Of a DNA stretch of 64,000 nucleotides, positions 5,153-14,855 are shown in pieces. The first letter of the stretch is position 1. Every line of letters starts with the position of its first letter. A program made the translations under genes and the position numbers. Source of the stretch: an uncultured Verrucomicrobiae bacterium (lineage in GTDB: Bacteria; Verrucomicrobiota; Verrucomicrobiia; Limisphaerales; UBA11358). Below the pieces are notes generated by a model that saw nothing but the letters and a program-made list of their open reading frames with translations, ran no database searches and had not been told where the DNA came from. The stretch is from NCBI GenBank assembly GCA_963802965.1, contig CAWDKS010000003.1, positions 274,813-338,812 on the forward strand, given 5' to 3'.

Positions 5153-6235
5153 ATGAATCGCAGCCGTCCATCCTTCCTTTCGGTCCGCGCCGCCGTGTTG
5201 CGCCCGCCGGGCGGTCCGCTGAAAATCGAGCGCCTGCAAATGGAGGGGCCGCGCGCCGACGAGGTGCTGGTGCGCCTGATCGCCAGCGGCATCTGCCACA
5301 CCGACATTGGTTTTTGTGAAGGCGGCGCGCGCGGCCCGGTGGTGCTGGGCCATGAAGGGGCGGGCGTGGTGGAACGGGCCGGCGAAAAAGTCAGAGGCGT
5401 GAAACCGGGCGACCACGTCGTGCTTTCCTACCAATCCTGCGGCCATTGCCCGGCATGCCGGCGCGGCCATCCGGCCGGCTGCGAACATTTCTGGAAGGCG
5501 AACTTCGGCTTCGCCCGGCTGGACGGCAGCAACGCGTTTCAAGGCGGTGTGCGCGGGCATTTCTTCGGCCAATCCTCGTTTGCGACCCACACGCTGGCGA
5601 CCGAACGGAATCTGGTGAAAGTTTCAAAATCGCTTCCGCTGGAATTGCTGGCGCCGCTGGGATGCGGACTGCAAACCGGTGCGGGCACGGTGTTGAACTC
5701 GCTGGCGGTCAAAGCCGGCTCGAGCCTCGCTGTTTTCGGCACGGGCGCGGTCGGGCTGGCGGCGGTGATGGCCGCGCGACTCGCGCGGGCGCGGACAATC
5801 ATCGCCGTGGACATCAATCCGCGCCGTCTCAAACTCGCCCTGGAGCTGGGCGCAACGCACAGCATTGACAATCGCAACGCCGATCTCGCCCGGAGCATCG
5901 CTGCCATCACCGGCGGCGGCGCCGACTACATCGTCGAAACCAGCGGCGCGTTGTGTTCGGAGGCCGCTGACTTGCTCAACCCGCGCGGCACGGCGGCGTT
6001 GTTGACCGGCGTGAGTGGTCCCGACTGGCTGCCGGGCGGACGCCGGGTTCTCAGTGTCATCGAAGGCGACGCGGTGCCGCAATTATTCATCCCGAAACTG
6101 ATCAAGCTGCATCAGGACGGGTGTTTTCCCTTTGACCGTCTGGTGAAATTTTATCGGTTCGCCGAAATCAACCGCGCCATCGCCGATGCCAGACGCGGCG
6201 ACACCATCAAGCCCGTGCTGCGGATGGGAAAGTGA
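5153..6235 (+). CDS. zinc-dependent NAD(P) alcohol dehydrogenase (aryl-alcohol dehydrogenase-like)
   Basis: C-terminal 360 codons of ORF 4205-6235, starting at MNRSRPS. Motifs are GICHTD, GHEGAGVVE, CGHCPACRRG and VFGTGAVGLAAV. The upstream part of the ORF is antisense to the CDF gene. Confidence 0.9.
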   Translation: MNRSRPSFLSVRAAVLRPPGGPLKIERLQMEGPRADEVLVRLIASGICHTDIGFCEGGARGPVVLGHEGAGVVERAGEKVRGVKPGDHVVLSYQSCGHCPACRRGHPAGCEHFWKANFGFARLDGSNAFQGGVRGHFFGQSSFATHTLATERNLVKVSKSLPLELLAPLGCGLQTGAGTVLNSLAVKAGSSLAVFGTGAVGLAAVMAARLARARTIIAVDINPRRLKLALELGATHSIDNRNADLARSIAAITGGGADYIVETSGALCSEAADLLNPRGTAALLTGVSGPDWLPGGRRVLSVIEGDAVPQLFIPKLIKLHQDGCFPFDRLVKFYRFAEINRAIADARRGDTIKPVLRMGK

Positions 6236-6300
6236 AATGTGATGCGTGACACGTGAAGAAATGGTTTCTTCCGCTCACGTTTCACGTCTCACGTCTCACG
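6236..6300. repeat. simple-sequence hairpin (arms built from CACGTGA/TCACGTC-like units)
   Basis: gtgatgcgtgacacgtgaag ... ctcacgtttcacgtctcacgtctcacgc are roughly complementary arms directly after the ADH stop. Confidence 0.5.
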
Positions 6301-6304
6301 CAAT

Positions 6305-6340
6305 CAGGTGGCAGAACATTCCGTCGCGGAGCTTGGGCTC
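6305..6340. repeat. 36-bp direct repeat, orphan copy of the DUF1015 gene 3' end
   Basis: caggtggcagaacattccgtcgcggagcttgggctc is identical (36/36) to 8813-8848. The reverse translation is EPKLRDGMFCHL. Confidence 0.9.
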
Positions 6341-6433
6341 ACGGGTCGAGCAATGAGCGGATGGGTGCTTGCGGGTTATCCTTCCGTTCGCGGAGAATTT
6401 TCTCCAGCCGTTGCCGCAAACCCGCGCTTTGAT

Positions 6434-8674
6434 TCAGTAAAACAGGTTGGCCCCGAAATCTGGAGTCTTCCCATCCATGACTTCGGCAATCCACTTGTCC
6501 AATTTGCCGCGGTCCATTTTCCAAAACTTGCGACAGTGCATGAAATACTCCACCACCGTATCGCGCTCGCCTTTTTCCAGAAGGTCTTTGGCCAGAGTCA
6601 TGTTGGGGCCGAAACTGTCCATCGTTGGCGAGCCGGGACTTTTGCCGGCGGCAATCAGATACTTTTTTGCCGCTTCGATGTTGCCTTCGCGCGCGGCAAT
6701 CCGGCCAAAAACCAAGTTGGCGTCCTGAATGGCATTTCCATAGTTCCAGTCACCTTTGTATTTCGGCAGCAGCGTCGTCAGCTCTTGGGCGTAATTTCGC
6801 GCATCATCAATTTTGTCGGCCACAAAACTCTCCTTGGCGGCGGCGTCAAGCGCATAAAATCGTTTCTCTTCCGTTTTGGCCGTTTTCAAATCATTCATCG
6901 CCCGCTTGTAGTTTTGCCGGGATATGTCTTGTAGAGAAAGGGACGGAAAGGAACCCGTGTAATGTTTTATCAGAACAAACGACAACGGGACGAACAACAG
7001 ACACCCAATCATGATTCCCCGTTGCACACGGGTGGAAAACGTCCGCACCCGTGGCTTGATGAAAAAATCCGCTTCCGGCACCTGGCCAACCGCGCGTTCC
7101 GCCGCCGCCAAATCCCCGTTGTTAAATTTGACCCACGCGGACTCAATCGCCCACGAAACAACATTTTCCAACTCGCTGTCGGACGGAAGTTTTTCACCCT
7201 GCAACCGCCGGAGAGTTTTCCGGTCTGTTTGACCCAATCTGGCCGCCACTTTGCCATCCGGTTGCAATAACAGGCGGGAATTCTGCGACCAGCTTGGAAA
7301 ATTTCGCAGCATACTCCAAACTGACGCTTTTGCCGGCGGCAGCCTTAATTCGAGTCCGTCTTCAGCCCAACGATGATTGCTGGCCAGCCAGCGTGTGCCG
7401 AGGAAGCGGGCAAAAGCGAGCAGCTCTTCTTCGGTGCAATTGTGCTTCTCTTGAAAGTCCGCATCATCGGCTTTCAACAAGCCTTCGGCTCCGCGCACAA
7501 ATAAATTGTAATCCATCCGCATGGGCTGTTGGGTTTGATACCGCACCATTACGAATGATTGAAGCAGGATCAGTATCATACACCAGCCCAGCGGCATCCA
7601 ACCCAATCCGACCAACAAAAACGACAAAAACAAAACGCTGTTGCAAAGCATGGCAGCAATGGAATAATGGCTTCGATTGATTGACACCCGTTTGATTTGG
7701 AAGGGCAACATGACCAGGCCAATGCCAGCAATTATGAGATAAAATGTTTTCCAGTTGCTTGGATTGAGCCGCGGTATCAGAAACCACATTCCCACCATTA
7801 TCAGTGCGAACCACAGAACCCCCCACCGCGTATTTTCACGGAACAAGCGGGCGCGAAACCCTTTTTGATCCCGGAAATTTGCCAGCTCCAGCCGCATGAG
7901 CAGCCAATGAACCAGCACAAAAGGCAGGAAAAACAGCAGCGCGAAAGATGAAATAACCCATTTCACCGGCGCAAGTTTAGCGAGGGTTCCCAAAATCGTC
8001 GCGCCAATGCCGCCCGCCGTCGCAGCTTTCGCGGTCGAAGATGCCAGCACGCCGGCCATGATGGCGGGAACCAGCGTTTTGGCCGGCCCCAATTTCGCCA
8101 GCGAGCCTTCTAGTTTTTCCTCGAGCCGTGCGCGCATCGCGGCGCGGGCGCGGTGCAGGCGCACGCGCAAGGCGGTTTCGGAAATTCCCAGCGCCGCCGC
8201 CGCTTCCGCGCCACTCCTGCCTTCGAGATAAAACAGCACCAGACATTCGCGGTGCGAATCCGGCAGTTCCGCGAGCGTCTGCCGCAAGGTTTCCGGCGTG
8301 TAAAGCGGGTCGGTTTCGTCGCCGGAATTTTCTTCGGTGGAGTTGTCCGGATTTTCCAGCGCCCAACGTTTGCGTTTGTTGAGTTCACGGCGATGGCGCA
8401 GGCCGAGATTGATGGCAACGTGGCGCGCGATGGTGTTGACCCAAGCGGCGAATTTCGCGCCGTCGCCGAGCAGCCACAGCCGCCGATACGCGCGGATGAA
8501 CGCCTCCTGCGTGACCTCTTCCGCAAGCGCGGCATCGCCGAGCCGGCTCCATGCAACGGCATATACACGCCGCTCATGACGCTCGACGAGTTCACGGTAG
8601 CGCTCGGCATCGCCGCGCCGCACGGCGGCCACGGCGGATTCGTCCTGTTGCGCGCTGGTCATTTCGGTTTGCAT
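6434..8674 (-). CDS. ECF-type sigma-70 factor fused to a polytopic membrane region and a large C-terminal domain
   Basis: 746 aa. Residues 1-190 carry sigma region 2 and 4 (RYRELVERHERRVYAVAW..., ECLVLFYLEGRSGAEAAAALGISETALRVRLHRAR). Several hydrophobic helices follow (aa ~200-400 and ~570), then a helical-repeat-like tail. Confidence 0.8.
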   Translation of the reverse strand: MQTEMTSAQQDESAVAAVRRGDAERYRELVERHERRVYAVAWSRLGDAALAEEVTQEAFIRAYRRLWLLGDGAKFAAWVNTIARHVAINLGLRHRRELNKRKRWALENPDNSTEENSGDETDPLYTPETLRQTLAELPDSHRECLVLFYLEGRSGAEAAAALGISETALRVRLHRARAAMRARLEEKLEGSLAKLGPAKTLVPAIMAGVLASSTAKAATAGGIGATILGTLAKLAPVKWVISSFALLFFLPFVLVHWLLMRLELANFRDQKGFRARLFRENTRWGVLWFALIMVGMWFLIPRLNPSNWKTFYLIIAGIGLVMLPFQIKRVSINRSHYSIAAMLCNSVLFLSFLLVGLGWMPLGWCMILILLQSFVMVRYQTQQPMRMDYNLFVRGAEGLLKADDADFQEKHNCTEEELLAFARFLGTRWLASNHRWAEDGLELRLPPAKASVWSMLRNFPSWSQNSRLLLQPDGKVAARLGQTDRKTLRRLQGEKLPSDSELENVVSWAIESAWVKFNNGDLAAAERAVGQVPEADFFIKPRVRTFSTRVQRGIMIGCLLFVPLSFVLIKHYTGSFPSLSLQDISRQNYKRAMNDLKTAKTEEKRFYALDAAAKESFVADKIDDARNYAQELTTLLPKYKGDWNYGNAIQDANLVFGRIAAREGNIEAAKKYLIAAGKSPGSPTMDSFGPNMTLAKDLLEKGERDTVVEYFMHCRKFWKMDRGKLDKWIAEVMDGKTPDFGANLFY

Positions 8675-8714
8675 AATCTAACCGAAAGACAGCGGCGAAG
8701 GGAAATTGTTACAA

Positions 8715-8806
8715 CGACCGGACATTTACGATTTGCGATATACGATTTACAAGGCTGCTCCAATTTCGAGACTGGCGCGTAAATCGTAAATCGTCATTCG
8801 TAAATG
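8715..8806. repeat. simple-sequence hairpin (ATTTACG/CGTAAAT units)
   Basis: catttacgatttgcgatatacgatttac ... gtaaatcgtaaatcgtcattcgtaaatg. Same architecture and unit as 11015-11095. Confidence 0.55.
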
Positions 8807-10087
8807 TCAGAGCAGGTGGCAGAACATTCCGTCGCGGAGCTTGGGCTCGAACCAGGTGCTTTTCGGCGGCATGACGCCGCCGGCGTCCGCAATCGCCATC
8901 AAATCCTCGATGTTCACCGGGAACAGGGAAAACGCGCAGGCGGCTTCGCCGCTGTTCACGAGTTTTTCCAATTCCGCCGTCCCGCGAATGCCGCCGACGA
9001 ATTGGATGCGCCTGTCCGTGCGCGGGTCTTTGACGCCGAACACCGGCTCGAACACGTGTTGTTGGAGCAGGGTCACGTCGAGTTGCTCAACCGGGTCATC
9101 GGTCGCCCACAATTTCCTGGGAAAGATCAGCGTCCGCCATCGGCCGCCCAAATAAAGGCTGACTTCATGATTGCGGCCGGGGGCGGCCGCGCCGTTTGGG
9201 TCCATGGCAAAAACGGTGCCGAGGATTTCCAGCGCCTGTTCCGGGGTCCAGCCGTTCAAATTCTTCAACACGCGGTTGTAGGGCAGTATCTGCATCCGGT
9301 CGTGCGGGAAAATCACGGTCAGAAATTGTCCGCTGTGATCCCGTTCCGTGGCAGCCGACGTGAGCCGGCTCTGGCTTTTATCCGCAGAAGTTTGAGCGGA
9401 CTCACGTCCGCTGCCACGTTTCAAATAAATGCGCGCCGCCGCCGCGCTGCGATGATGGCCGTCGGCGATGTAAAGCGCCGGAACCTCCGCGAATTCGGTT
9501 TCGATGAACTGGATTTCCTTCGCGGCGTGAATCGTCCACGACGAGTGCCGCACGCCGTCCTTGGCGGTGAAATCAACCTCCGGTTTTCCGGAAGTTTTTT
9601 TTGCGATGAATTCGGCAACCAACTTTGGGGCGCGACCGGCCAGGGACGCCGGGCCGGTTTGCGCATTCAGCGCTTCGATGTGCCGCACCCGGTCGTCCTC
9701 CTTGTCCGGGCGCGTGAGCTCGTGCTTCTTGATGACGCCACGCAGGTATTCCCCGCAATCCGCCGCGGCGACCAGACCGGTCTGCGCGCAATCGCCCATA
9801 ATTTGCCGATACAGATAAAAACACGGCTGCGGGTCCTGCCGCAGCGCGCCGTCGCGGATGAGCTTTTGAAAATTTTCCCGGCCCCGCGCATAAACCTCCG
9901 GCGCGCAAGCGTCCGTGCCCGGCGGCAGGTCAATCTCCGGTTTGCTGACGTGGAGAAAGCTCAACGGATTGCCGGCGGCCATCTGGCGGGCTTCGTCCGA
10001 CGACATCACGTCGTAGGGCAGCTCGCAGATTTTTTCCGCGAGTTCCGGTTTGGGTCGCAACGCGGCGAAGGGTTTGATGGTCGCCAT
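8807..10087 (-). CDS. DUF1015 domain-containing protein
   Basis: Start taken at MATIKPFAALRPKPELAEKICELPYDVMS (ATG 10087). It also contains YIADGHHR and C-terminal PPKSTWFEPKLRDG, typical of DUF1015. Confidence 0.85.
   Translation of the reverse strand: MATIKPFAALRPKPELAEKICELPYDVMSSDEARQMAAGNPLSFLHVSKPEIDLPPGTDACAPEVYARGRENFQKLIRDGALRQDPQPCFYLYRQIMGDCAQTGLVAAADCGEYLRGVIKKHELTRPDKEDDRVRHIEALNAQTGPASLAGRAPKLVAEFIAKKTSGKPEVDFTAKDGVRHSSWTIHAAKEIQFIETEFAEVPALYIADGHHRSAAAARIYLKRGSGRESAQTSADKSQSRLTSAATERDHSGQFLTVIFPHDRMQILPYNRVLKNLNGWTPEQALEILGTVFAMDPNGAAAPGRNHEVSLYLGGRWRTLIFPRKLWATDDPVEQLDVTLLQQHVFEPVFGVKDPRTDRRIQFVGGIRGTAELEKLVNSGEAACAFSLFPVNIEDLMAIADAGGVMPPKSTWFEPKLRDGMFCHLL
8813..8848. repeat. 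36-bp direct repeat, genic copy (DUF1015 3' end)
   Basis: Identical to 6305-6340. Here it encodes the true C-terminus ...EPKLRDGMFCHLL-stop. Confidence 0.9.
9346..9418. repeat. palindromic ~75-bp element (twin GTGA-loop hairpins) embedded in frame in the DUF1015 CDS
   Basis: ccgtggcagccgacgtgagccggctc...gagcggactcacgtccgctgccacg. The same termini and hairpins occur in the intergenic copy at 29697-29774. Confidence 0.7.
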
Positions 10088-13495: not shown

Positions 13496-14182
13496 TTAAT
13501 TCCCCGACCATTTGTAGTCGTAGCCGTCGGGCGGTTCGTATTTGACCGGAAACCCGCCGCCGCCCTGGACTCCGTTCCAGTAGATTTTGATGTAATCCAC
13601 GTGGCCGTCCACAAAGCTCATCACGTTGCGCGCGTCCGGGAATTGCAGCGGCTGCCGGCGGTCGTGGCTGCTCAAGCCGATGCCACCGGAATCTTCCCCG
13701 ATCAGTTCGGTCCGGGCCGGCTCGTGCACGGAGGCGAACGGCTTCTGCGCCATGTCCAGTTCGTTCGTGTCGTCATTGAACACGCCGCCGTTGAACCAGT
13801 AGCTGGAAAAATGGGTATCCGGCAGGTTGCAAAAGCCCCGGCATTGGAACGGGCCGAACAGCCATTGGCCGATCGGGCCGGACAAGTCGAAATCATCGGC
13901 GGCGCACACGAAAACGGCGTTGTTGGATAAACCCCCGCCGATATACGGCAAAATGTTTTCTTTGTAATCGAAGTAAATGGAATTGGTGTAGTAAGCGATG
14001 GCATCGCCGTGTTCATCCGCATACAGATGGACGGCCAGATTGATTTGACGAACATTGCTGACGCACGCGATTCGTTTGGCAGACGACTTGGCCCGGCTCA
14101 ATACCGGCAAAAGCAAGGCCGCAAGAATGGCGATGATGGCAATCACCACCAGCAGTTCAACCAAGGTGAACGCGCGTTTCAT
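13496..14182 (-). CDS. prepilin-type N-terminal cleavage/methylation domain protein (DUF1559 / H-X9-DG type)
   Basis: [32 protein letters not shown] at the N-terminus. Near the C-terminus, the H and DG in [13 protein letters not shown]. Confidence 0.85.
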
Positions 14183-14183
14183 T

Positions 14184-14245
14184 TCATTCGCTCCACTCGC
14201 CGGTTTGCAGATACGGTTTGAGCTTTTCCTTGAGCGTTTCGCGTC
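14184..14245. repeat. copy 3 (genic) of the ~60-bp repeat
   Basis: The last 20 codons plus stop of the sigma gene. Matches 12657-12718 and 13430-13488. Confidence 0.85.
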
Positions 14246-14786
14246 CGCGATGGATGAGCGATTTCGTGGCGGAGAGTGAGCAGTCCAGAATTTCGGCGAT
14301 TTCCTCGTAGCTCAAATCCTCCTGCCGGCAGAGCAGAATGGCCGTGCGCTGGTTCTCCGGCAGTGCGGCCAATGCCTCCTCGATTTTCTGCGCGAGTTCG
14401 CCGTGCAACAGTTTTTCCGGGGCGGCGATTTGTGATTTGTCCTCGTATTGCTGGCGCGGCTGGTCCTCGTGCTCGGCGTGAGCCTCCTCGATGGATTCGG
14501 CGGGATGCCGCGAGCGCCGGCGGAGTTCATTCAGGCACAGGTTGCGCGCGATGGTGAACAGCCACGTGGAAAATTTCGCCGTCCGTTTGTAGCGGCCCCG
14601 GGATTTGTAAACCTGCAGGAAAACCGTCTGTGCCAGGTCCTCGGCCTCAATCTCGTCGCGCAGCGAGCGGTAGATGAAATTCAGCACCGGCTGCTTGTAT
14701 TTGTCCACCAGCCCGGCAAACGCCGCGCGGTCGCCGCGTTTCACGCGGAGCATCAGGGCGGCATCGGGGTCGGGCTGGACTGGCAT
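14184..14786 (-). CDS. ECF-type RNA polymerase sigma-70 factor
   Basis: Start taken at [23 protein letters not shown] (the ORF extends to 14852). Contains [20 protein letters not shown] and [27 protein letters not shown]. Confidence 0.85.
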
Positions 14787-14855
14787 CGCATGGAGTTTAA
14801 CCAACAAGGCGCGTGCGACAAGGTTTCGCTCGTTCAAGCCGGGACAATTCAATTA

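Follow-up and report, generated by a model that had tools for sequence, protein, structure and literature searches.

The fusion gene and its sigma domain

On the reverse strand of a 64,000-nucleotide stretch of contig CAWDKS010000003.1 (positions 274,813 to 338,812; assembly GCA_963802965.1), from an uncultured Verrucomicrobiae bacterium and hereafter called the window, lies a gene that joins an extracytoplasmic function (ECF) sigma factor to a polytopic membrane protein in one chain. The list of open reading frames (ORFs) gives a single frame of 746 amino acids (aa) that begins with ATG and contains no internal stops, and so runs on past the sigma domain as a first-pass annotation, made from the letters alone, had read it. 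From N- to C-terminus, the predicted product consists of the ECF sigma (aa 17-187), a short linker, a signal-peptide-like hydrophobic segment, five transmembrane (TM) helices, a 165-aa alpha/beta domain, a seventh TM helix and a tetratricopeptide repeat (TPR)-like domain. The coordinates of these parts, and of the elements upstream of the gene, are collected in Table 1.

Table 1. Parts of the sigma-membrane fusion gene and upstream elements, in window coordinates. aa, residues of the 746-aa product; pLDDT, predicted local distance difference test score.
Feature	Position	Strand	Basis
Complete coding sequence of the sigma-membrane fusion, stop codon included	6434..8674	-	ORF list; in-frame full-length homologues, 43-93% identity; single in-frame tblastn alignments in genome loci
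ECF sigma core	8132..8590	-	PF04542, PF08281, PF04545; TIGR02937 above cut-off
Sigma region 2 (aa 29-96)	8387-8590	-	Pfam
Sigma region 4 (about aa 130-181)	8132-8287	-	Pfam
Linker and first hydrophobic segment, TMa (aa 188-237), consensus LRPAKTLVPAIMAGVLASSSAKAATAGG	7964..8113	-	Conservation; hydropathy
Predicted membrane bundle of five helices (aa 238-382); its cytoplasmic loops NFRDxxGFRARLFR and INR are conserved	7529..7963	-	Hydropathy; AlphaFold2 helices, pLDDT 85-97
Alpha/beta middle domain (aa 383-545), assigned to the cytoplasm	7040..7528	-	AlphaFold2: 4 strands plus helices, pLDDT mostly >90
Predicted seventh TM helix (aa 546-569), returning the chain to the periplasm	6968..7039	-	Hydropathy peak 553-570; AlphaFold2 helix 546-569
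TPR-like helical-repeat domain (aa 570-746), predicted periplasmic	6437..6967	-	658 homologues; AlphaFold2 pLDDT 91.3, all-alpha
ECF-type promoter TGTAAC-N16-TGTCT	8687..8713	-	-35 GTAAC 8712-8708; -10 GTCT 8690-8687
Long imperfect hairpin with 30-nt arms, between the DUF1015 stop and the sigma promoter	8721..8808	-	Inverted repeat I1, 87% complementary

We scanned the 746-aa protein against Pfam and NCBIfam. PF04542 (Sigma70_r2) matched aa 29-96 with 50.3 bits (cut-off 24), PF08281 (Sigma70_r4_2) matched aa 130-180 with 49.8 bits (cut-off 25.7), PF07638 reached 22.9 bits (cut-off 21.1) and TIGR02937 (sigma70-ECF) reached 76.8 bits (cut-off 42.9), while the same scan gave no match to sigma region 1 or region 3. 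With regions 2 and 4 present and without sigma-1.1 or sigma-3, the N-terminus is an ECF (group 4) member of the sigma-70 family, and the complete ECF sigma that had been noticed within the first ~190 aa is thereby borne out. All 25 specific NCBIfam sigma models listed besides TIGR02937, including SigW, SigM, SigE and RpoE, stayed below their cut-offs; the best of them was PRK11922 (104.8; cut-off 204), and TIGR02989, the Rhodopirellula/Verrucomicrobium family, scored 67.6 (cut-off 124.55).

Conservation of the fusion

A search with the non-sigma part of the protein (aa 184-746) returned 191 proteins. Among the listed matches of at least 700 aa, sigma domains were attached in all except P0116 (777 aa), which gave a region-4 match only, and the full-length relatives over this query (744-768 aa), one of them from Pedosphaera parvula, were 43-93% identical. 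We also performed an exhaustive HMMER search with aa 190-570, which yielded 262 proteins, all of them cluster representatives. In almost all 262 the match began at residue 185-215 of the target, right behind a sigma-sized N-terminus, and 212 of the 225 proteins with a complete membrane module (94%) carried a sigma factor in frame. The other 13 start at or near the beginning of the module and are fragment-like, one being a demonstrated frameshift product. The covalent union of sigma and polytopic membrane region is a conserved one. In a collection of species-representative genomes we found 22 loci, 20 of which are labelled Verrucomicrobiota (Limisphaerales, subdivision 3, Pedosphaera), and wherever the locus sequence was complete, one in-frame tblastn alignment covered the whole distance from sigma to module. 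The remaining two, L008 (CAZQNQ010000012.1) and L009 (CAYYWB010000046.1), are contigs of metagenome-assembled genomes (MAGs) from third-party assemblies, labelled 'uncultured Bifidobacterium' or 'Bifidobacteriaceae'; the family is otherwise strictly Verrucomicrobial, and these bins are probably mislabelled.

A stop or frameshift near 8100, which the first-pass annotation had raised as a possible seam between two ordinary genes, was seen in one relative only. Locus L002 (5369-7632) is syntenic with window 6434-8674 at 82% DNA identity, and there one A has been lost from an A-run exactly at the junction of sigma region 4 and linker, so that the gene was called as a 214-aa sigma factor and a 468-aa protein whose two halves overlap out of frame. 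Since the sister contigs, represented by P0387 and P0388 from the same 90% cluster as the L002 products, encode in-frame sigma fusions of 679 aa, the frameshift is specific to one contig. Together, these comparisons show that the fusion is real and conserved rather than an artefact, and that its architecture is ancient within one Verrucomicrobial lineage.

The sigma part is indeed richer in GC (0.644) than the rest of the gene (0.51-0.55), as had been remarked. The GC step had been taken as a hint of a fusion of two genes; a recent fusion was rejected, since the same fusion occurs in relatives whose modules are only 25-40% identical and it therefore predates the divergence of the family. At third codon positions, GC is 0.72 in the sigma part (8114-8674), 0.61-0.63 in the extension (6434-8113) and 0.75-0.82 in neighbouring genes. 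This low value in the extension sits beside an ancient fusion, and the deficit could reflect weaker codon selection or exchange of modules and tails among paralogues.

Membrane module and predicted topology

Hydropathy peaks lie at about aa 199-232 (weak, Ala/Gly-rich), 240-260, 283-301, 311-327, 339-377 (two helices) and 553-570. Modelled with AlphaFold2 (pLDDT 84.6; predicted template modelling score 0.78), aa 190-570 contain helices at 201-216 (low confidence), 223-266 (hydrophobic core 239-260), 273-302, 305-332, 336-357, 362-382 and 546-569, and an alpha/beta domain with four strands and several helices at ~391-528. The two methods thus agree on seven helices, where several had been noticed before. 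An odd number of crossings is required, since the sigma factor lies inside and the C-terminal domain outside the cytoplasm, and the predicted topology is accordingly N-in/C-out with seven TM helices. The distribution of Lys and Arg in the short loops of 85 family members (~7.2 on the side assigned as cytoplasmic versus ~2.6 on the periplasmic side) is consistent with this arrangement. Helix parity and charge distribution together assign the middle domain to the cytoplasm; of the large extracytoplasmic-looking region proposed earlier, only the last ~175 aa would therefore lie outside. Conserved motifs of the middle domain include RPxRMDYNLFLR, directly after the sixth helix, FARFLGxRW and AAAERALGQVPE.

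Pfam and NCBIfam gave no match above cut-off for aa 190-746, and when the three parts of the extension were scanned separately with Pfam at E <= 10, only a sub-threshold TPR match in the last 176 residues appeared. At the same threshold no anti-sigma domain (zf-HC2, RskA or similar) was detectable in aa 184-746. Since, in addition, the cytoplasmic middle domain is modelled as alpha/beta whereas known anti-sigma domains are all-helical, the earlier description of the protein as a sigma/anti-sigma pair in one polypeptide was not upheld. By fold, the best match of the membrane module in the PDB had E 3.8 with TM <0.25, and neither sequence searches of the PDB with the module nor profile searches with module and middle domain gave a match. 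As modelled, the membrane and alpha/beta module is thus without a known relative.

The C-terminal domain and its variants

The helical-repeat character of the C-terminus was confirmed by the model, in which the C-terminal 176 aa form ten helices (pLDDT 91.3) and the domain is all-alpha. The top Foldseek matches were TPR proteins (p67phox, designed TPRs and YfgM) at E = 0.06-0.5 and TM ~0.5, none of them significant; TPR_14 reached 16 bits against a cut-off of 23.5, searches of the PDB and BFVD brought up generic TPR/Sel1 folds only, and sequence and profile searches of the PDB gave no match. The domain carries the motifs NWNYGNAxQDxNLVLGRIA, GKSPGSPxMDSFGPNM, CRKFWKM and PDFGANLxY. A search found 658 homologues, and most of the 120 listed are stand-alone proteins of ~185 aa, 62-72% identical to the domain. 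These stand-alone proteins have a signal peptide and a lipobox (LLGC), and a Met start together with a lipobox was counted in 52 of the top 120; many of the other listed homologues are gene calls from an internal Met or carry the domain behind 3-4 TM helices. Because of this homology to stand-alone lipoproteins, the C-terminal domain is placed outside the cytoplasm, where it is presumed to act as a sensor or partner-binding module.

The listed homologues (P0121-P0240) belong to a large unannotated lipoprotein family, whose domain is also found behind a pseudopilin-like N-terminus, and one match is labelled Terriglobales. Loci of the stand-alone lipoproteins (L004, L005, L028-L030) are variable regions with toxin-antitoxin, transposase, SNIPE nuclease and phage-like genes, and these contexts gave no hint of a ligand. 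At L028 and L029, a DUF2007 gene lies upstream of the stand-alone homologue; DUF2007 is the domain that Casas-Pastor et al. (2021) tie to the sigma group ECF263.

The tail behind the module varies within the family. It is absent in 36 members, TPR-like and ~150-200 aa long in 60, and ~300-400 aa long in 100, and some of the proteins in this last class match a prenyltransferase-repeat model. The variable periplasmic tail is likely the input of the system; since tail-less members exist, the membrane module itself may also be able to sense something. In the L002 lineage, an in-frame TAG common to L002, P0387 and P0388 cuts the periplasmic domain short by 74 aa at its end, and the otherwise invariant NWNYGNA motif is degraded to TFTKTAGDA (P0023, P0387 and P0388). 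Because of this shared premature stop and the degraded motif, the periplasmic domain seems to be decaying in this lineage while sigma and module remain intact.

Conservation pattern and exchange of parts

Among 84 family members, mean pairwise identity was 79% for the sigma factor, 65% for the linker and first hydrophobic segment (TMa), 34% for the other TM helices of the five-helix bundle and 43% for the middle domain. Within the module, the invariant residues, among them N266, G272, F273 and R274 in the region of the five-helix bundle, map to the cytoplasmic loops and the middle domain, i.e., to the cytoplasmic face. About 12 residues separate the end of region 4 (~aa 187) from the first hydrophobic segment (~aa 199-201). 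Judged by eye, TMa has a basic n-region, a 13-aa hydrophobic core with an invariant Pro and an A-K-A small-x-small motif; P203, S212 and G222 are invariant, and K216 and A218 nearly so. We propose that TMa is both membrane anchor and release site. It is the best candidate for the latter since its conservation is twice that of the other helices, it contains many Ala, Gly, Ser and Pro residues, it resembles a signal peptide, and it is inherited together with the sigma factor.

Several genomes carry more than one copy, each bearing the same promoter motif. One MAG (L012 and L015) has a 762-aa copy with a TPR-like tail and a 936-aa copy whose sigmas are 77% and modules 35% identical and whose tails are unrelated, and in tandem pairs of two other genomes (L019, 2428-7053; L020, 241-4856) the sigmas are 81% and the modules 35% identical. 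About 10 members combine a recognisably homologous module with another ECF sigma, 27-32% identical to the present one, and with another first segment. Judging from these alignments, the sigma factor evolves as a unit with the first segment, and the module, from the second helix onward, is a unit of its own.

Directly upstream of the Pedosphaera parvula orthologue (L001; ABOX02000004.1) lies a second sigma fusion (5968-7503), in which a sigma factor is followed by a hydrophobic segment ('SANSVQAAP'), a coiled coil and a POTRA-like domain; its sigma-plus-segment unit matches in type that of the sigma-swapped members (e.g., P0066). Tethering of sigma factors thus seems to be generally practised in this lineage. 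A 240-aa internal-deletion derivative was found at L024 (2906-3654), where the family promoter and first 16 codons are kept, the sigma domain is gone and the 16 codons are joined straight to the sixth TM helix, middle domain and last helix; the copy may have decayed, or its product may serve as a decoy that lacks the sigma.

Promoter and gene neighbourhood

The promoter upstream of the fusion ends 12 nt 5' of the ATG in the window. Promoters of ECF sigma factors usually have 'AAC' at -35 and 'GTC' at -10, and that of Bacillus subtilis sigma-X, for comparison, reads TGTAAC-N17-CGAC. The core GTAAC-N17-GTCT (fuller consensus TGTAACAATTTCCCTTCGCGGCTGTCTTGCGGTTAAATG) precedes 25 of 26 family genes with invariant spacing, 9-12 nt before the ATG. 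In the 64-kb window it is the sole match, against 0.08 expected by chance, and throughout 256 kb (the window plus fetched loci) every exact match adjoins a family gene. The only locus without the motif, L016 (equivalent to P0066), is sigma-swapped. The motif thus tracks the type of sigma, which is what recognition of this promoter by its own sigma would produce, and these patterns indicate autoregulation from TGTAAC-N16-TGTCT. Since only 9-12 nt separate promoter and start codon and a Shine-Dalgarno sequence is lacking, the mRNA is probably leaderless or nearly so.

Farther upstream, the long hairpin has a predicted RNA fold of -37.6 kcal/mol (z = -5.4) and is built from TTTACGA-like heptads; comparable long hairpins of unrelated sequence occupy the same place in L009, L018 and L017. 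A terminator or insulator is the probable reading, a palindromic repeat element another; in the first case the sigma gene would depend on its own promoter. The gene is monocistronic, with a DUF1015 gene upstream and a convergent gene for a Zn-dependent alcohol dehydrogenase downstream, and its wider neighbourhood is one of housekeeping functions (SmpB, RpoZ, L28, polyprenyl synthase and a cation-efflux protein). No neighbourhood is conserved in the family: synteny was found with the closest relative, L002, only, and the contexts in Pedosphaera and L003 differ. Adjacent to the gene, we found no anti-sigma factor, protease or obvious target at the loci examined. Elsewhere in the window (13496-14852, reverse strand) is an ordinary ECF sigma of 222 aa, 28% identical to the fused one and directly followed by a protein with a prepilin-type N-methylation motif, not by a recognisable anti-sigma.

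Proposed activation of the tethered sigma factor

Whether a sigma factor held by its own chain is released or acts at the membrane, as the first-pass annotation had asked, is the right question for this protein. We infer that the sigma factor is inhibited by tethering or shielding and released by proteolysis, and a one-component transmembrane sigma activated by proteolytic release is the reading we hold to be somewhat more probable than all others together. The ECF sigma (aa 1-187) would be made as the N-terminal, cytoplasmic part of an inner-membrane protein with seven helices, with the signal-peptide-like segment (~aa 201-216) as first crossing, the conserved cytoplasmic loops of the five-helix bundle and the alpha/beta domain facing the sigma, and the seventh helix leading out to the periplasmic TPR-like domain. 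At rest, the sigma would be held ~12 residues from the bilayer, probably also covered by the cytoplasmic face of the module, and would be kept from entering a productive holoenzyme. On a signal from periplasm or envelope, sensed by the C-terminal domain or, in a paralogue, by its own tail domain, proteolysis would set in within or beside the first hydrophobic segment; most plausibly, a site-1 protease would first cut at the periplasmic A-K-A and an RseP-type site-2 protease would then cut within the membrane. Once free, the sigma would transcribe its regulon, and also its own gene from TGTAAC-N16-TGTCT, a positive feedback through an almost leaderless mRNA. Release would be needed since a linker of ~12 residues hardly allows a holoenzyme to sit on DNA. 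RseP substrates need helix-destabilising residues, and the invariant Pro and the Gly and Ser of TMa fit this need. Precedents for release are IutY, freed by Prc and RseP, and the like activation predicted for ECF48, ECF52, ECF53 and ECF57, and RseP is described as also clearing remnant signal peptides (PMC8144685).

Several observations weigh against this proposal. TMa itself is modelled at low confidence (pLDDT 48-58), no protease gene is linked to the locus, and in the 256 kb of window and fetched loci no regulon members were found besides the family's own genes. Since the extension has neither an anti-sigma domain nor a fold relative, the argument for self-inhibition comes down to the conservation pattern, and since about 10 members join the module to another sigma lineage, a sigma-binding surface of high specificity is less likely. 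Casas-Pastor et al. (2021), moreover, doubt a regulatory role for the multi-TM extension of ECF263.

A more elaborate scheme, which we put forward tentatively and consider rather doubtful as a whole, is a sensor array that releases one near-identical sigma through clean-up of a cryptic internal signal peptide, without an anti-sigma. Paralogues would contribute different inputs (no tail, a TPR-like lipoprotein domain, or a prenyltransferase-like domain of ~350 aa), and with near-identical sigmas and identical self-promoters any one signal would turn on a shared regulon and at the same time prime all other sensors, an OR-gate with cross-amplification. Signal peptidase would cut at A-K-A, and the site-2 protease that normally clears signal-peptide remnants would follow, so that the sigma would be its own membrane-anchored pro-protein.

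The sigma could instead never be released and act while tethered, as ToxR and CadC do, with polymerase and promoter recruited to the membrane and activity set by conformational switching. The missing protease linkage agrees with this idea, the conserved cytoplasmic loops and middle domain could be an allosteric transmitter rather than a mere anchor, and a multi-helix bundle is more than an anchor needs. We nevertheless regard it as unlikely: judging from holoenzyme structures, region 4 could hardly occupy the polymerase flap and -35 DNA when only ~12 residues from the bilayer, the strong conservation of the first segment relative to the other TM helices, with its small residues and Pro, fits a processing site better, and IutY, the experimentally studied sigma fusion, is released by proteolysis.

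Less likely again is that the extension is not regulatory at all but an enzyme, transporter or scaffold, fused for instance to couple expression or location, with a separate anti-sigma, or transcription alone, governing the sigma; for ECF263, this is what those who drew up the ECF classification suspect. The absence of an anti-sigma domain and the module's ability to combine with a different sigma are compatible with this, and strong autoregulation alone could set sigma levels. However, the module almost never occurs without a sigma (94% fused, the exceptions fragment-like), no anti-sigma candidate lies beside the gene at any locus examined, swappable periplasmic tails above a conserved cytoplasmic face make the pattern of a sensor, and fixing a sigma to the membrane cannot be neutral for its activity. 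An assembly or sequencing artefact, in which a missed stop or frameshift joins an ordinary sigma gene to a gene for a membrane protein or anti-sigma, has the 1-nt deletion of L002 and its two called proteins in its favour but is highly improbable against more than 200 independent proteins and at least 20 genome loci with in-frame fusions, module identities from 93% down to ~25-40%, in-frame relatives in the very cluster of the L002 products, and an out-of-frame overlap that marks a lesion and not a designed gene pair.

Implications

Bacteria transduce signals by three major routes, of which ECF sigma factors are the third, and what is known of their mechanism comes almost entirely from two-protein sigma/anti-sigma pairs in Proteobacteria, Firmicutes and Actinobacteria. 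Here sensing, membrane transmission and promoter selection would be combined in one chain, in a phylum, Verrucomicrobiota, that is abundant in soils and peat and almost unstudied in its regulation. The sharply defined self-promoter is a ready reporter, and nature already offers variants in which the tail or the sigma is exchanged or an internal part is deleted. If release by proteolysis uses signal peptidase and a site-2 protease, or if the paralogues converge on one regulon, this would be a new principle of sigma control, and the array with its cryptic signal peptide would, if true, be a mode of sigma activation without earlier description. The protein could then also be a compact, portable part for synthetic biology that couples a periplasmic input to an orthogonal sigma output.

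Comparison with known systems

Our literature search found no paper on this sigma-membrane family, in line with its earlier description as poorly characterised, and met the name ECF263 in the classification paper only. ECF263 is the closest described group, especially its subgroup s3. In the ECF classification 2.0 (Casas-Pastor et al., 2021), its members carry an extension with five TM helices (~230 aa) or seven (~330 aa), ~8% of them come from Verrucomicrobia, and there is no experimental work. Set against these published features, our protein has seven predicted helices, but the extension is 559 aa long and contains two extra soluble domains. The ECF263 promoter, TGCAC(A/C)-Xn-CGTC, is of a similar type to TGTAAC-N16-TGTCT, yet both elements differ; the conserved Cys of ECF263 region 2 has no counterpart, since aa 1-100 contain no Cys; the upstream neighbour is DUF1015 rather than DUF2007 at position -1; and the resemblance of some ECF263 extensions to fatty-acid desaturases was not matched here (Pfam, E <= 10). 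The tail-less members of our family have a total length of ~550-570 aa and thus extensions of ~360-380 aa, near the length in ECF263 s3, to which they could correspond.

Sigma and anti-sigma are fused in IutY of Pseudomonas putida, an ECF243 hybrid released by Prc and RseP (PMC8999054; PMC5411451), and ECF48, ECF52 (SCO4117) and ECF53 of Actinobacteria are predicted to work like it (PMC8999054). The likeness lies in having a sigma, a membrane-spanning part and an extracytoplasmic C-terminal domain in one polypeptide. In those proteins, however, an anti-sigma or zinc-finger domain lies between region 4 and one or two TM helices, whereas here region 4 runs almost straight into the membrane, seven helices follow and an anti-sigma domain is undetectable; our protein is not a member of these sigma/anti-sigma fusions. 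ECF57 of Planctomycetes (Jogler et al., 2012) has been proposed to become active on its release from the membrane (supplement of 10.1101/2019.12.11.873521). ECF57 shares with our family the Planctomycetes-Verrucomicrobia-Chlamydiae (PVC) superphylum, a C-terminal TM extension and several copies per genome; it is described there as having two TM helices, occurrence in Planctomycetes only, WD40 or homeodomain-like tails and no conserved promoter motif, in contrast to the seven helices, Verrucomicrobiota and sharply conserved promoter of the present family.

In ToxR and CadC, too, a single chain comprises a cytoplasmic DNA-targeting domain, TM segment(s) and a periplasmic sensor. They are, however, winged-helix activators that act tethered through long linkers, whereas here an RNA polymerase subunit is held by a linker of ~12 residues. 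In the RsiV/sigma-V system of Bacillus subtilis, a type-II anchor contains a cryptic signal-peptidase site that is cut only after ligand binding, and a site-2 cut follows. The A-K-A behind the short hydrophobic stretch of our protein would by analogy fit such a route; RsiV, however, is a separate anti-sigma with a single TM helix and a lysozyme-binding domain, whereas here the cleavable segment would sit on the sigma itself. ECF sigmas with membrane-spanning extensions are thus already catalogued; new here are the predicted seven-helix and alpha/beta module, the exchangeable periplasmic inputs, a sigma that is near-invariant among paralogues and a sharp self-promoter.

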